A DNA stretch of 50,744 nt from a virus: IMG/VR virus record IMGVR_UViG_3300002091_000004, one strand, 5' to 3'. The notes beneath the pieces were generated by a model. The model was not told the origin of the DNA. It did not search any database and saw nothing but the letters and a program-made list of their open reading frames with translations. Positions 21,364 to 25,570 of the stretch are shown in pieces (the stretch's first letter is position 1; each line of letters begins with the position of its first letter). The position numbers were made by a program, and so were the translations under genes.

Positions 21364-21738
21364 ATGAACAATATGACACCTCTCGATATGGTAACGCAGT
21401 TCGCTGTTGCTATGGGACAACCCCTTGGGCTTCCTTGGGTAACTGGTGAAAAAAGCACTGTTGAAAATATGCGGTTCAGACTTATTGAAGAGGAATTTAA
21501 GGAGTTTTCTCTAGAAGACACAGATCTTGTAGCAGCACTTAAAGAACTTGCAGACCTTGTCTACGTGTGCTATGGATATGCTGCCACCTTTGGTTGGGAC
21601 TTGGATGAAGCTGTAAAACGTGTTCATGCTTCTAATATGTCTAAACTTGGGGATGATGGTAATCCTATCAAACGAGAAGATGGTAAGGTCCTTAAAGGGC
21701 CAAACTATAAGAAACCTGACCTAACTGATTTGGTGTAA
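21364..21738 (+). CDS. mazG: MazG-like nucleotide pyrophosphohydrolase
   Basis: EEFKEF and ELADLVYV helices typical of the MazG fold; internal ATG chosen. Confidence 0.7.
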   Translation: MNNMTPLDMVTQFAVAMGQPLGLPWVTGEKSTVENMRFRLIEEEFKEFSLEDTDLVAALKELADLVYVCYGYAATFGWDLDEAVKRVHASNMSKLGDDGNPIKREDGKVLKGPNYKKPDLTDLV

Positions 21739-21739
21739 T

Positions 21740-21904
21740 ATGGCTGACATGGTTCAAATCTCGGTTAAAGAATATCTTTCCCTTAAAGATGATGCTAATT
21801 GGCGAAGGTGCCTTGAAGCTGGTGGGGTAACATCAGACTGGGAATGGTATAGTGAGGCGCTGGATGCAGGCGGCTATTATGAAGAAGAAGAGGACGAAGA
21901 ATGA
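21740..21904 (+). CDS. Hypothetical acidic protein (54 aa)
   Basis: Below cutoff; ATGA overlap with the nrdJ start. Confidence 0.4.
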   Translation: MADMVQISVKEYLSLKDDANWRRCLEAGGVTSDWEWYSEALDAGGYYEEEEDEE

Positions 21905-22870
21905 CTAATTACTTGCCTACAGACTATCAATCTTTTATTGCCACAAGCCGTTATGCACGATGGCTGGATGATGAAAATCGTCGTGAGAATTGGGGAGAGA
22001 CTGTTCAACGTTATATTGACAATCTTGTGGTACCTAAAGCTGATGCCCAAACCACAGAAGAGATTCGTGAAGCTATTCTTAGCCTTGAAGTAATGCCCTC
22101 TATGCGGGCTATGATGACCGCTGGACCTGCTCTACAACGTGATAATACTGCTGGCTATAACTGTGCTTACCTTGCTGTAGATGACCCTAAAGCCTTTGAT
22201 GAAGCTATGTTCATCCTTCTGTGTGGTACTGGTGTAGGGTTCTCTGTGGAACGTCAGTATATCAGTAAGCTGCCCGATGTACCGGATACTATGTTCCAAA
22301 GCGATGACACTATTATTGTAGCTGACAGTAAAGAGGGTTGGGCTAAGGCATTGCGTAAGCTGATTGCTTATCTGTATGCTGGTGAAATCCCTAAGTGGGA
22401 CGTGTCTAAGGTTCGTCCTGCTGGTGCAAAGCTTAAGACCTTTGGTGGTCGTGCTTCAGGTCCTGCACCTTTGATTGACTTGTTTAACTTTACCATCAAC
22501 ACTTTTGTTAACTCTAAAGGTCGTAAACTCTCTTCTATGGATTGCCACGACCTTATGTGCAAGATTGGTGAAGTTGTTGTGGTTGGTGGTGTTCGTCGTT
22601 CAGCTATGATTAGTCTTTCTAATCTGTCTGATGATCGTATGCGACATGCTAAGTCTGGACAGTGGTGGGAAAAGAATGCTCAACGTGCATTGGCTAACAA
22701 CTCAGTTGCTTATACTGAGCGGCCTGACATGGAAACTTTTCTTCGTGAGTGGACTTCTCTTGTTGAGTCTAAGTCTGGTGAACGAGGTATTTTCAGCCGT
22801 CCTGCGTCTAAAAAGCAAGCTGCAAAGAATGGCCGTCGCAACCCTGACTATGAATTTGGTACCAATCCGT
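21901..22870 (+). CDS. nrdJ: Class II (B12-dependent) ribonucleotide reductase, exon 1
   Basis: Ends ..EFGTNP + T; the unspliced frame hits TAA immediately; joins 23045 to give TNP-C-SEI. Confidence 0.85.
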
Positions 22871-23044
22871 AAGCGATAAATGTGCGGATTTAAAACTTCT
22901 CCTGATTGACTTGGAAGGCTGTAGCAAGCCGACAGGGCGCAAGCGTAATGGTAGCGTGAGAGACTAAGCGGAGAAGGCACTAAGACAGTGTATGCGATAG
23001 TCCAGCGCACAAGTGGGTATGCTAATGTAACCCCACAGTGTGAG
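22871..23044 (+). mobile_element. Group I intron 1 (ORF-less, 174 nt)
   Basis: 5' exon AATCCGU pairs with intron GCGGAUU (22884..22890) with U.G at the splice site; last intron base is G; R/S-like core GAGAGACUAAG (22958) and GCGAUAGUCCAG (22994). Confidence 0.8.
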
Positions 23045-23396
23045 GCAGTGAAATTATTCTAAGACCACAACAATTCTGTAATTTGACGGAATCTGTGATT
23101 AGGGCTACAGACACCCTTGATGACTTGATCCGTAAAGTTCGTATCGCAACTATCCTTGGCACTATTCAATCTACATATACTCACTTCCCTTATCTTCGTA
23201 AGTCTTGGAAAGACAATACTGAAGAAGAGCGGCTGTTGGGAGTTAGCTTGACTGGTATTATGGACAATACTCTAACTAACAATCCTTGGGAAAATCTGAA
23301 TGTTATCCTTGATCTTTTGAAGCAAGTTGCTATTGATACTAACAAAGAGTGGGCAGAAAAGCTTGGTATTAATGCTTCTGTGGCTATCACTTGCGT
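23045..23396 (+). CDS. nrdJ: Class II ribonucleotide reductase, exon 2
   Basis: (C)SEIILRPQQFCNLTE... to ...VAITCV; frame continuity with exons 1 and 3. Confidence 0.85.
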
Positions 23397-24171
23397 TGAC
23401 TAATTAGCGCCCTGTTGTGGTAACATAACAGTGAAAATCCTGTGAATTGCTGGAAACCCCTAACGTAAAGACGAGGGCAATCAGCAGCCAAGCCTTGAAA
23501 AAGGAAGGTTCAACGACTATCTACGAAGGTAGAGTAGGATCAAGTGATCCGAAGCGCAGGGCATCCTTATAGGATGATGATATAGTCTAGTCTCCTAAGA
23601 AACTAGGAGCAGTTTAGGTCTAAAAATGTACATAGTCTATAAAGCAACTTATAAAGATAAGTACTATATTGGTTTTACCAATGACTTGTCTAAAAGAATC
23701 TCTTCACACCAGTGTTCAATCAATTCTGGTAAGAAGAGTAAGTTTTATGATTATGCAAGAAAATACAACTTTGATAATTTTGTATTTTCTATAATTGGTG
23801 AGTTTGAAGATAAAGAATCTGCCTTTAGTTTTGAGATTGAGAACATAAAACTTTCTGACCCAAATTGCCTAAATTTGGCAAAAGGTGGTGAAGGTGGTTT
23901 TGTTATACCCGAATATTTACAAGATGGGTGGAAACAAAAACTAAAGGCTGCTAGACAAGGAAGAAAACCTGCCCAAGGTATGTCACACACAGAAGATAAT
24001 AAAAACCTCTTTAGTTTGTGTGGAAAAATTCGTTGGGATAAGTATGGTAGGTACCCAAGTGAAGTGATTTCTTTATCTTTCAAAGATGCTAAACAAAAGT
24101 ATGGCATAAGTAAAACTCATTACTATAGACTTAAACGGGCTGAGAATAACGAACTCAGTTGAATATAAACG
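23397..24171 (+). mobile_element. Group I intron 2 carrying a GIY-YIG endonuclease ORF (775 nt)
   Basis: 5' exon ends in U, intron ends in G; core GGUUCAACGACUAU (23507) and GAUGAUAUAGUC (23576); splicing restores ITCV-KPSGTVSQL; boundary ambiguous by 1 nt (repeated T). Confidence 0.8.
23626..24162 (+). CDS. GIY-YIG homing endonuclease (intron-encoded)
   Basis: YIVYKAT..YYIGFT..SKRISSH..FEIENI..LNLAKGG; stop lies 9 nt before the 3' splice site. Confidence 0.85.
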   Translation: MYIVYKATYKDKYYIGFTNDLSKRISSHQCSINSGKKSKFYDYARKYNFDNFVFSIIGEFEDKESAFSFEIENIKLSDPNCLNLAKGGEGGFVIPEYLQDGWKQKLKAARQGRKPAQGMSHTEDNKNLFSLCGKIRWDKYGRYPSEVISLSFKDAKQKYGISKTHYYRLKRAENNELS

Positions 24172-24751
24172 TAAACCCTCTGGCACAGTTTCCCAGTTGG
24201 TTGACAGTGCAAGTGGTATTCACGCTAGGCATAGTGAGTACTATATTCGTACTGTGCGTGGAGATAACAAGGACCCATTGACCCAGTTTATGAAGGATCA
24301 AGGTATCCCTAGTGAACCTGATGTTATGAAGCCTGAAAGCACTACTGTCTTTAGCTTTCCTATGAAGTCTCCCTCTGGTGCTATTACTCGTAATGATATG
24401 ACTGCCCTAGAGCAACTTGATCTGTGGTTGATCTATCAACGTCATTGGTGCGAACATAAGCCTTCAGTAACCATTACTGTTCGTGACCATGAATGGATGG
24501 AAGTTGGTGCTTGGGTCTATAAGTACTTTGATGAAGTGTCTGGTGTATCATTTTTGCCACACTCTGACCACTCTTATCAACAAGCACCTTACCAAGAGTG
24601 CTCTAAGCGTGAATACGAAGACGCTCTTGCCTTGATGCCGAAAAAGCTTGACTGGGCAAAGCTTTCAGAGTATGAAACTGAGGATACCTCGAAGGGAACT
24701 AGCACTTTTGCCTGCGTCGGAGGATCGTGTGAGGTTGTAGATTTGGTCTAA
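24172..24751 (+). CDS. nrdJ: Class II ribonucleotide reductase, exon 3
   Basis: Begins (V)KPSGTVSQL and ends with redox tail FACVGGSCEVVDLV; the three exons total 1902 nt = 633 aa. Confidence 0.85.
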
Positions 24752-25290
24752 TGAAGAAAGATTTAACAGGACAAACTTTTGGGGACCTCTACGTTGTAGG
24801 GGTCTCTGAAAAATCTAGAAATGGCCATTATAGGTATTCCGTAACCTGTGTTTGTGGGACTTCTAAAACTGTTTTAGGAACCCATTTAATTCAAGGTAAC
24901 ACTTCACACTGTGGTTGTAAAACTTTAAGAGTTAGTGCAAATTACCAAGGTTATAAGGGTGTTGGCAAAACTTATTGGAGTTCATTAAAACGGGGTGCTA
25001 ATGGTGAAAAAGGAAGAAAGTCTCTCGACTTTAATTTGACCATAGAGTATATTGGAGACCTGCTAGAGAGACAAGAATATAAGTGCAAACTTAGCGGCTT
25101 ACCGATAACTGCAAAAAGGGGAACTGCTTCTTTAGATAGGATTGATAGTGGTAAAGGTTATATTGAAGGTAATGTTCAATGGCTTCACAAAGATGTGAAC
25201 ATGATGAAAAGACATTATAACCAAGATTACTTCCTCTTTCTTTGTAAGAAAATTGCTGGGGGAAGCTGTGAAATCGTTGACCTGACCTGA
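24751..25290 (+). CDS. Free-standing HNH-family homing endonuclease
   Basis: N-terminal LTGQTFGDLYVVG..CVCG..SHCGC, C-terminal LDRIDSGKGYIEGNVQWLHKDVNMMK; TAATG overlap with the nrdJ stop; ends GGSCEIVDLT. Confidence 0.75.
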   Translation: MKKDLTGQTFGDLYVVGVSEKSRNGHYRYSVTCVCGTSKTVLGTHLIQGNTSHCGCKTLRVSANYQGYKGVGKTYWSSLKRGANGEKGRKSLDFNLTIEYIGDLLERQEYKCKLSGLPITAKRGTASLDRIDSGKGYIEGNVQWLHKDVNMMKRHYNQDYFLFLCKKIAGGSCEIVDLT

Positions 25291-25300
25291 TAGGAATAGA

Positions 25301-25570
25301 ATGTTCTATGTCTTGACCAAAGATGACTGCATTTGGTGTGATGCAGCTAAAGAACTCTTGAGCAAAACGGATACCCCTTTTGGGGTATTCGACTACCGTG
25401 ACCATCCTATGCTTGCTCTACTTATGAAGAAGGCAGGACTACGTACTGTACCACAGATTTGGGTTGACACTCCTGATGGAAGAGAGTATATAGGTGGTTA
25501 TGAAGACTTGATGAAATGGATTGCTACAAACAGTTTGACAAAACCTGTTACCTCAAGTGAATCGGAATAA
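25301..25570 (+). CDS. Glutaredoxin/NrdH-like redoxin
   Basis: 89 aa, N-terminal CIWC active-site motif, adjacent to the RNR gene. Confidence 0.7.
   Translation: MFYVLTKDDCIWCDAAKELLSKTDTPFGVFDYRDHPMLALLMKKAGLRTVPQIWVDTPDGREYIGGYEDLMKWIATNSLTKPVTSSESE

Follow-up and report, generated by a model that had tools for sequence, protein, structure and literature searches.

The intron of the Azoarcus sp. BH72 pre-tRNA-Ile, a member of subgroup IC3, is located in the tRNA anticodon loop and contains a P2 helix together with tetraloop-receptor clamps. Its length is 205 nt (PMC3895272). The group I introns of T4 nrdD (sunY), nrdB and td and of Twort nrdE are located at highly conserved codons and often carry GIY-YIG or HNH genes, and several introns can occupy a single phage RNR gene (PMC3653736). 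Group I introns are also described in the class II RNR (RIR) genes of cyanobacteria such as Nostoc punctiforme (Meng et al. 2007, cited in PMC12702839), and introns without P2 are noted in that literature.

The nrdJ gene described here is encoded on the plus strand, as are all features discussed below, of the window, a stretch of 50,744 nucleotides from IMG/VR virus record IMGVR_UViG_3300002091_000004. With a probability of roughly 90%, the locus is best explained as a class II nrdJ gene that has acquired three homing-type selfish elements, two of which are group I introns that would be spliced out of its RNA. The virus appears to be a marine T7-like (Autographiviridae-like) phage to which no cultured phage is closely related in its DNA; when the entire region was compared to phage genomes by megablast, the intron 2 core alone was matched, in unrelated DNA-polymerase introns.

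The nrdJ gene and its spliced product

The gene is divided into exon 1 (21901..22870), which comprises 323 codons and the first base of the Cys324 codon, exon 2 (23045..23396), which is delimited by the conceptual join and the alignment to homologues, and exon 3 (24172..24751), the last 12 codons of which (24716-24751) are a recoded tail derived from an HNH cassette. The exon lengths of 970, 352 and 580 nt add up to 1902 nt, and their conceptual join is in frame and yields a protein of 633 aa. Exon 1 ends in ..GGT ACC AAT CCG T and is directly followed by AA, so that a UAA stop codon straddles the 5' splice site of intron 1. Exon 2 opens at 23045 with GC AGT GAA ATT, and the join of T and GC generates a Cys codon and restores GTNPCSEIILRPQQFCNL. 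A sequence-only reading of the window had already proposed the joins 22870/23045 and 23396/24172, a 1902-nt coding sequence for 633 aa, and a TAA after the GTNP of exon 1 that is resolved by T+GC to bring back the active-site motif, and every one of these coordinates and features was recovered here. Alignment to uninterrupted NrdJ, which had been suggested as a check, is equally favourable: FGTNPCSEIILRP across the intron 1 junction (FGTNP-C-SEIILRP) and AITCVKPSGTVSQ across the intron 2 junction (AITCV-KPSGTVSQ) both align without gaps in 120 of 120 uninterrupted homologues.

The best 80 IMG/VR nrdJ loci are all uninterrupted, and the exons share 80-86% identity at 100% coverage with uninterrupted full-length homologues. 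The spliced 633-aa product matches Pfam PF21995 and PF02867 above their cut-offs as well as the L. leichmannii RTPR structure (PDB 1L1L, E 9.5e-54), in an alignment that spans GTNPC(G/S)EI and VKPSGTV. The codon split by intron 1 is that of the catalytic Cys, which aligns with the C of GTNPCGEI in 1L1L, and the conserved TCV|KPSGT motif is the one interrupted by intron 2. The product contains the RNR barrel, the B12-RNR insertion domain, the NPC(x)E finger-loop Cys and the C-terminal CxxxxC pair (in the tail CVGGSC). By these features the gene is a class II monomeric NrdJ-type reductase, for which dependence on adenosylcobalamin (B12) is predicted from homology.

Intron 1 is a miniature group I intron

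Intron 1 (22871..23044) is 174 nt long, ORF-less and devoid of P2, and terminates in the omega-G at 23044. P1 (22864-22871 / 22883-22890) is formed by the exon sequence AAUCCGU (22864-22870) and the intron sequence GCGGAUU (22884-22890), with U22870.G22884 at the 5' splice site and an A22871-U22883 pair that lengthens the helix to 8 bp. P10 pairs UGU 22881-22883 with GCA 23045-23047 of exon 2. P3 (22896-22902 / 22970-22976) encloses P4 (22910-22913 / 22933-22936), P5 (22917-22920 / 22927-22930) and P6 (22937-22944 / 22951-22957). The P7 pseudoknot (22960..23003) is composed of G22960, the bulged A22961 and GACUA 22962-22966 opposite UAGUCC 22998-23003, and its span includes P8 (22977-22981 / 22987-22991) and the J8/7 sequence AUGCGA. 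The P9 hairpin (23006..23042) has the form CGCAC-AA-GUGGG ... CCCAC-A-GUGUG and is followed by an A and the omega-G. The core strings AGACUAA and GAUAGUCC lie at 22961 and 22996, respectively, and G22962-C23002, which adjoins the bulged A22961, is presumed to be the pair that binds guanosine. These helices were recovered both by a single-sequence MFE fold and by RNAalifold.

The 174-nt length, 7-bp P1 with its U.G pair, terminal G and core strings had all been pointed out in the sequence-only reading and are confirmed, and its remark that 174 nt would be very small for a group I intron is borne out by the 205 nt of the Azoarcus intron (PMC3895272). In Rfam searches at E<=10, intron 1 gave no match to Intron_gpI (RF00028) and only chance matches of the lncRNA type, and the outcome for a long-tailed relative was identical in both respects. 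The miss is read as a gap in the coverage of the model because intron 1 displays four structural hallmarks, namely a P1 with U.G, a P3-P8 core with the P3/P7 pseudoknot, a bulged P7 with R/S-type junctions, and an omega-G with P10.

Distribution and covariation of the intron 1 family

The core motif of the intron 1 family occurs on at least 119 IMG/VR viral contigs, and a search of bacteria and archaea, with one genome for each of 185,579 species, returned only six matches and none in Nostoc. The family lacks P2 and is inserted into head, portal, tape-measure, NrdD and NrdJ genes, with one relative of intron 1 splitting a P22-like coat gene. ORF-less members at the RNR site of intron 1 are 167-223 nt long, mostly 167-190. 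Roseobacter phage CRP-118 carries an 85.6%-identical copy at this same RNR site, and in the relative L064 the same intron at the RNR site includes a 201-aa GIY-YIG ORF in the P8 loop (L8). GenBank annotates the RNR of CRP-118 as two separate CDSs, and the CRP-118 genome paper makes no mention of an intron; similarly, the coat protein of MW202674 is annotated in pieces, and a spurious ORF has been called within the intron.

Among 118 model-aligned copies, both partners vary in 28 of the 32 pairs of P3-P8, and the paired fraction of cells is 95.9%, with the reservation that the alignment was fitted to the model structure and pairing is thereby inflated for all helices except P7. The covariation score of this alignment is 0.512 versus 0.17 for shuffled data and about 0.1 with the pairing slid, and an alignment made by MAFFT only gave 97.6% paired cells and a score of 0.43 versus 0.16 shuffled. 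P7 lies outside the covariance model and yet covaries, both its bulge-flanking pair and its terminal pair occurring as AU, GC and UA. Changes on both sides were found for 7/7 pairs of P3, 5/5 of P5, 5/6 of P6 and 3/4 of P4, the last of these resting on few independent variants (3 + 1 copies changed on both sides, 13 on one side), GGUG/CACU and CUCG/CGAG. A different P4 register, CUUG/CAAG with a 9-nt J5/4, was ruled out as both variants compensate only in CUUG/CAGG.

The pairings with the exons are likewise maintained. A P1 of at least 7 bp with U.G is present in 95 of the 118 copies, across 54 different exon contexts, and within the RNR-site clade it shows one compensatory change from GC to AU. 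In the window copy and four others an upstream decoy helix was dropped as P1, which was set by hand from the family pattern. The 3-bp P10 covaries among 11 RNR-site relatives in five combinations (GCA/UGU, GCU/AGU, GUG/UAU, GUU/AAU and GCG/CGU), one relative being an exception with two of three pairs, and the inner helix of P9 also covaries among the RNR-site relatives. Against R1, a covariance model of its own family, intron 1 scores 130.7 bits (E ~1e-29), a circular value since it is one of the 30 training sequences; the independent evidence is the family-wide covariation.

Without P2 and peripheral tetraloop-receptor clamps, intron 1 might need a protein or high Mg2+ for activity. It could accordingly be a true but non-autonomous group I intron that depends on a protein helper, either a host RNA chaperone or an endonuclease/maturase, for its folding and splicing in vivo. 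Such a dependence would suit the stripped-down architecture (174 nt, no P2, a 4-bp P4 and minimal P5, P6 and P8), an unremarkable single-sequence folding energy with a z-score of only -1.19, and the two endonuclease genes found within nrdJ, and there is precedent for a protein encoded in one intron that helps a number of similar introns in bacteria. However, in other phages an endonuclease is absent from the vicinity of most family members, as in CRP-118, which possesses the ORF-less intron only, and all core helices and junction sequences show the strong conservation that would be expected of a self-sufficient catalytic core. The Azoarcus intron, moreover, self-splices well in spite of its small size. 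A requirement for a helper is for these reasons judged unlikely.

A dead relic that leaves the RNR broken at the catalytic cysteine, as a pseudogene or as two non-functional fragments, is very improbable. The missing Rfam match of insert 1 and the two RNR CDSs given to the CRP-118 homologue by the GenBank annotators could be taken in this sense, but the three exons are intact, in frame and as similar to full-length homologues as stated above, intron 1 keeps all 53 invariant positions of the family, and its P1 and P10 fit the flanking exons, including a compensatory change relative to CRP-118, a cultured and viable phage that retains the same interrupted arrangement. Finally, it is hardly conceivable that RNA splicing plays no part in bridging the 174-nt gap and that ribosome bypass as in T4 gene 60 or assembly of two polypeptides takes its place, for although the UAA stop lies exactly at the 5' boundary of intron 1 and phage RNRs assembled from split fragments are known (PMC3045599), the break falls inside the catalytic Cys codon so that no fragment pair could carry the Cys, and the covarying RNA fold, the exon-tracking guide sequence and the spread to unrelated genes would be left unexplained.

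Intron 2 and its GIY-YIG endonuclease

Intron 2 (23397..24171) is a 775-nt group I intron with a 5' core, an ORF in the 3' tail and its omega-G at 24171. Its P1 (23393-23399 / 23404-23410) contains the U23396.G23407 pair, and P10, as read from the sequence, joins UUA 23404-23406 to the UAA of exon 3. The region 23387-23609 matches RF00028 over the full length of the model (positions 1-253) with 114.6 bits (E 3.5e-29), compared to a gathering score of 50. The core strings GUUCAACGACUA and GAUAUAGUC are located at 23508 and 23579, two extra hairpins reminiscent of P7.1/P7.2 follow GACUA, and introns of phage DNA-polymerase genes share 76-95% identity with the core. The ORF (23626..24162) encodes a 178-aa GIY-YIG homing endonuclease (Pfam PF01541, E 8e-12; PHROG 314, E 3e-23) and its stop codon lies 9 nt upstream of the 3' splice site. 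Removal of the intron restores the reading frame. The exact intron 2 junction had no matches in IMG/VR, and a protein-based search identified one relative with intron 2, L288, in which it occupies the same RNR site and carries a 97%-identical GIY-YIG copy; intron 2 with its GIY-YIG gene is missing from L064.

The boundaries of insert 2 between ..ITCV and KPSGTVSQL, its core strings and the 9-nt spacing of the GIY-YIG stop agree with the sequence-only reading. That reading had also suggested that both inserts be compared to Rfam Intron_gpI and modelled structurally. The first comparison succeeded for insert 2, which passes the gathering threshold, and gave nothing for insert 1 at E<=10; used alone it would wrongly have led to the rejection of intron 1. 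Modelling of insert 1 produced a full P1, P3-P9 and P10 fold, which compensatory changes among 118 relatives support. The identification of both inserts as group I introns is supported by every test open to sequence analysis.

An HNH cassette within the RNR 3' end

The third element is a cassette of about 540 nt (24715..25254) that comprises a recoded RNR tail, (C)VGGSCEVVDLV*, followed by most of an ORF (24751..25290) for a 179-aa HNH endonuclease (PHROGs 3322 and 374, E 5e-20 and 6e-19). The last 11 codons of the HNH ORF (25255-25287) are the displaced native RNR tail AGGSCEIVDLT. The breakpoints were obtained from a three-way DNA alignment that includes the HNH-free relative L288. The HNH-in-RNR arrangement recurs in at least 15 IMG/VR contigs, and the HNH gene is missing from both L064 and L288. 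The GIY-YIG and HNH proteins each have a domain match and an optional presence at a fixed site that characterise homing endonucleases, and cleavage is predicted. The earlier suggestion that this gene is a hot spot for selfish elements holds further than was claimed, as the HNH gene is inserted inside the RNR 3' end and not merely adjacent to it.

Proposed mechanism

The exon joins, the RNA folds with their covariation, the breakpoints of the cassette and the optional occurrence of each of the three elements among relatives are observed; from here on we infer catalysis, homing and the order of events at nrdJ. The gene would have been colonised by three homing-type elements, and its two group I introns very probably remove themselves from the nrdJ RNA, in two self-splicing reactions that would render the pre-mRNA contiguous. 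Exogenous guanosine bound in P7 would attack the phosphate that follows the U in the U.G pair of P1 (U22870 in intron 1 and U23396 in intron 2). P10 would align the 3' exon, and the freed 3'-OH would attack after the omega-G (G23044 and G24171), which would restore the Cys324 codon (U+GC) and the Val441 codon (GU+U). Intron 2 is a conventional phage group I intron that would be mobile by means of its GIY-YIG endonuclease. Intron 1, which has no ORF, belongs to a lineage of compact group I introns carried by phages, with no P2, a 4-bp P4, short P5, P6 and P8 and a single P9 hairpin. As the P8 loop of sister copies at its site still contains a GIY-YIG ORF, it probably arrived by homing, its endonuclease having been lost or never gained. 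The HNH gene interrupts the RNR at the codons for the CxxxxC redox pair of the C terminus, and since its cassette supplies a recoded replacement tail the RNR stays intact.

Implications

That phage RNR genes harbour group I introns is a classic observation, and intron 2 and the HNH gene do no more than extend the list. More is added by intron 1. On a reading that is put forward tentatively, at somewhat less than even odds, it would represent a group I structural lineage that is uncatalogued in Rfam 15 and occurs almost only in environmental phages, and a literature search for an earlier description of the family or of a 'smallest group I intron' found nothing specific. Among natural group I ribozymes whose core has all of P1, P3-P9 and P10, the ORF-less members (167-175 nt, no P2, 4-bp P4) would then rank as the smallest, with a length some 15-20% below that of the Azoarcus intron. 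Their escape from RF00028 would mean that split capsid, portal, tape-measure and RNR genes are systematically mis-annotated in viromes, among them capsid genes with six or more intron copies.

The family provides a minimal group I architecture (167-175 nt) that occurs in nature and has been validated by evolution, and that would be attractive, if self-splicing, for folding, structural and engineering work. RF00028 is blind to the family on well over a hundred viral contigs, a gap that leads to annotation errors in deposited genomes such as those in the CRP-118 RNR and the MW202674 coat protein, and virome surveys that use RNR or capsid marker genes will miscount the intron-split genes. The nrdJ locus also appears to preserve three stages of the homing life cycle: an intron with its endonuclease, an intron alone, and an endonuclease that stands free and is accompanied by a recoded tail of its target.

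Comparison with known systems

Like the Azoarcus intron, intron 1 is small and ORF-less with short P5, P6 and P8, and both share the P3-P7 pseudoknotted core and R/S-like strings. Unlike the Azoarcus intron, it has no P2, measures 174 nt with relatives down to 167 nt, and is found in a protein-coding phage gene. It is unmatched by RF00028, of which intron 2 is a full-length member. Intron 2 is of the T4/Twort type, with its core at the 5' end, extra hairpins after P7 and the ORF in the 3' tail, as is the case in sunY. Unlike the T4 and Twort introns, those described here are hosted by a class II nrdJ gene at the different sites NP|C and TCV|KPSG, and intron 1 additionally lacks the IA-type P7.1/P7.2 and P2. 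The Nostoc RIR introns are likewise described as group I introns in a B12-dependent RNR gene.

The HNH cassette is comparable to free-standing homing endonuclease elements that bring a replacement gene end with them, such as the Allomyces atp6 mobile element and the phage mobE/seg genes. It lies within the 3' end of the gene that it targets, contains a recoded duplicate of the final 11-12 codons and is present in some relatives but not in others. It differs from the Allomyces/mobE type in that the ORF of its endonuclease continues into the native tail that was displaced.

Exon structure of the RNR gene

The class II ribonucleotide reductase (RNR) gene appears in the ORF listing of 21700-25000 as three frames on the same strand, one at 21901-22872 and two that stay open over 23045-23403 and 24172-24751. 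With 22870 joined to 23045 and 23396 to 24172, the coding sequence adds up to 970 + 352 + 580 = 1902 nt, or 633 codons, and the product comprises a B12-RNR insertion domain (PF21995) and the RNR barrel (PF02867). It aligns with the ribonucleoside-triphosphate reductase of Lactobacillus leichmannii (1L1L; E 9.5e-54), with GTNPCSEI opposite GTNPCGEI and CVKPSGTV opposite TVKPSGTV. The Cys restored at the first junction falls on the finger-loop Cys of 1L1L, the thiyl-radical residue C408. RNR homologues in the protein database number in the thousands, and in all of the best 120 (80-86% identity, 100% query coverage) the 8 residues on each side of both junctions align without gaps; the gene is uninterrupted in all of the 80 best-matching IMG/VR loci. 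Because uninterrupted homologues align across both joins, the three-exon structure proposed in the sequence-only reading is correct and the inserts are optional. The exon joins, the Rfam result for insert 2 and the family structure of insert 1 likewise support its interpretation of both inserts as group I introns. Upstream of the RNR lie genes for a metallophosphoesterase, a DNA methyltransferase, a MazG-like pyrophosphohydrolase and a small acidic ORF, and downstream glutaredoxin and PhoH; the Autographiviridae roseophage CRP-118 has the same MazG-RNR order.

Intron 2 and the HNH cassette

Insert 2 (23397-24171) is a mobile group I intron of the ordinary phage type. Rfam Intron_gpI (RF00028) aligns end to end at 23387-23609 with 114.6 bits (E 3.5e-29) against a gathering score of 50 bits. 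P1 is formed by 23393-23399 and 23404-23410 with U23396.G23407 at the splice site, and a 3-bp P10 pairs the UAA that starts exon 3 with UUA at 23404-23406. Like IA-type phage introns, it has two additional hairpins after GACUA, and the core shares 76-95% identity with those of DNA polymerase gene introns in Ralstonia, Rhizobium, Staphylococcus and Bacillus phages. Downstream of P9 is a 178-aa GIY-YIG ORF (23626-24162; PF01541, E 8e-12; PHROG 'homing endonuclease', E 3e-23) whose stop, as was noted earlier, lies 9 nt before omega-G24171. L288, an IMG/VR contig end with a near-identical RNR, carries this ORF at 97% amino acid identity and has the same 3' junction.

Homology search identifies an HNH endonuclease ORF at 24751-25290, which had been described as a neighbour of the RNR; its identity stands, but alignment with L288 places it inside the RNR 3' end rather than merely next to it. 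In a three-way DNA alignment the window RNR, which ends ..CVGGSCEVVDLV, equals that of the HNH-free L288 up to 24714 (..TTTGCCTG) and diverges beyond, and the native L288 tail TGCTGGGGGAAGCTGTGAAATCGTTGACCT recurs at window 25254-25284, the end of the HNH ORF; the breakpoints are exact (window 24715-25290; L288 771-900). The alignment therefore shows a cassette of ~540 nt lodged in the codons that specify the C-terminal CxxxxC pair. It is made up of a recoded RNR tail (VGGSCEVVDLV) with its stop and, after it, the HNH ORF, which runs on through the native tail, now displaced, and ends ..AGGSCEIVDLT. The same arrangement occurs in at least 15 IMG/VR contigs (loci L128-L146); more distant HNH homologues have no RNR-like tail, and in L288 and another RNR relative, L064, the RNR ends in the 'native' tail and the HNH is absent. 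Where the window has the cassette, L288 has a 74-aa ORF between RNR and glutaredoxin (L288 895-1399 versus window 25301-25570), and the two glutaredoxin genes are nearly identical.

Intron 1 and its relatives

Insert 1 (22871-23044) gave no match to RF00028 even at E≤10, the search that the sequence-only reading had suggested. Sensitive blastn returned two relatives: one, 85.6% identical, interrupts the class II RNR of Roseobacter phage CRP-118 at the same codon, and the other is a partial match (74%) that splits a P22-like coat protein gene in the freshwater podovirus genome MW202674. A pattern of two blocks conserved among these three copies is found in at least 119 IMG/VR contigs but, in a set of 185,579 bacterial and archaeal species with one genome per species, in only six contigs. 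Among these six (L122-L127) are MAGs labelled Methanobacterium, Dehalococcoidia and Myxococcales and an isolate of Bacillus pseudomycoides; they may be prophages or phage contigs that were mis-binned. Of 50,697 deposited phage records, only five contain a relative. Family members split the genes of three major head protein families, of a portal and a tape-measure protein, of several class II RNRs and of an anaerobic RNR.

In some viral contigs (L063, L010, L097, L051, L059 and L061) capsid-type genes hold many copies, all on one strand: six strong hits fall in 2 kb of L063 (2503-4437), with one exon of only ~20 nt between two introns, and L010 and L097 have 3-6 each, counting weak ones. In CRP-118 (OR420741; locus L001, 2031-4104) the RNR is annotated as two CDSs, gp44 and gp45, with the start of the latter placed 230 nt into exon 2; the intron is missed, and the CRP-118 paper does not mention it. 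The MW202674 coat protein (locus L002, 2693-4208) is likewise annotated as two CDSs, and a spurious 'hypothetical protein' has been called within the intron.

The P1 proposed earlier, exon AAUCCGU with intron GCGGAUU and a U.G pair, is reproduced in the window (AAUCCGU-A / U-GCGGAUU, 22864-22871 / 22883-22890). A P1 of at least 7 bp, with U.G at the expected place, occurs in 95 of 118 copies across 54 exon heptamers, so the guide sequence tracks whichever gene hosts the intron. In the 11 ORF-less introns at the RNR NP/C site, the three bases preceding the guide G form P10 with the first three of exon 2. Five combinations covary, GCA/UGU (window), GCU/AGU, GUG/UAU, GUU/AAU and GCG/CGU, and there is one partial exception. 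This pairing sets the 3' splice site after G23044, which accounts for the exact restoration of UGC (Cys). After the exon-final U most family members start AA; UAA 22870-22872 straddles the 5' splice site, while intron 2 has its in-frame UAA (23401-23403) within the P1 loop, so ribosomes would halt before either core.

The fold, first traced by eye and next on 30 copies aligned with MAFFT, runs from P1 through a 5-nt A-rich joiner replacing P2 to P3, J3/4 UGAUUGA, P4 CUUG/CAGG, J4/5 GAA, P5, J5/4 GA, P6 (GCGC/GCGU and an inner stem), J6/7 GA and P7 (G-(bulge)-GACUA / UAGUC-C), followed by J7/3, the P3 3' strand, P8, J8/7 AUGCGA, the P7 3' strand, P9, A and omega-G. In this alignment 97.6% of cells are paired, both sides change in 17 of 32 pairs, and the covariation score is 0.43 versus 0.16 shuffled (reached by 0 of 500 shuffles) and <0.1 with partners slid. 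R1, a covariance model of these copies that leaves out P7, finds exactly one copy in the window, at 130.7 bits, a circular score because that copy is among the training sequences. In the fetched loci it detects 118 strong copies, some of them divergent and without the search pattern. Across these copies 95.9% of cells are paired and both sides change in 28 of 32 pairs, with a score of 0.512 against 0.17 for shuffles and ~0.1 for slid partners.

Independently of the model fit, P7 covaries although absent from R1: its terminal pair and the pair across the single bulged base are each A-U, G-C or U-A, the latter arrangement being that of the group I guanosine-binding helix. The rare variants GGUG/CACU (three copies) and CUCG/CGAG, also independent of the fit, set the P4 register and rule out the other possible one, and the outer P6 stem is confirmed by GGGC/GCCU, GCGG/CCGU and GCCG/CGGU. 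From ten full-length introns at the RNR site, and given no user-supplied structure, RNAalifold returns the same helices. The minimum-free-energy fold of the window insert alone contains the same P1, P3, P4, P5, P6, P8 and P9, at an unexceptional folding energy (z = -1.19).

By its structure, intron 1 is a group I intron and a putative ribozyme. The main live alternative is that it needs protein-assisted splicing. Nothing supports the antisense ORFs over the introns, such as 22702-23010 (-; 102 aa), which overlap conserved RNA.

Comparison with known introns

L064 carries at 1465-2240 a sister of intron 1 that splits a closely related RNR at the same codon; its P1 and L1 are almost identical, and it has a 201-aa GIY-YIG ORF in the P8 loop (PF01541, E 7e-8). 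Intron 2 and the HNH cassette are both absent from this RNR, which indicates that the three elements assort independently among relatives. About one fifth of family members have an ORF within P8 or P9. The family's behaviour is thus that of a mobile intron lineage of the homing type. A literature search found no earlier description of a compact P2-less phage lineage of this kind.

The ORF-less RNR-site introns measure 167, 167, 170, 172, 174 (window), 174, 175, 180, 180, 190 and 223 nt; most other members have a longer 3' domain ending ..GUAACAGAAUG and reach roughly 215-250 nt, as estimated from tail lengths. The Azoarcus intron, usually termed unusually small, has 205 nt (PMC3895272) against the 174 nt of intron 1, and fungal 'degenerate' putative introns of 56-81 nt have most of the core missing (PMC3160393). 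Intron 2 and the HNH cassette add members to kinds already known; intron 1 represents a compact, P2-less, phage-borne lineage missed by the curated Rfam model.
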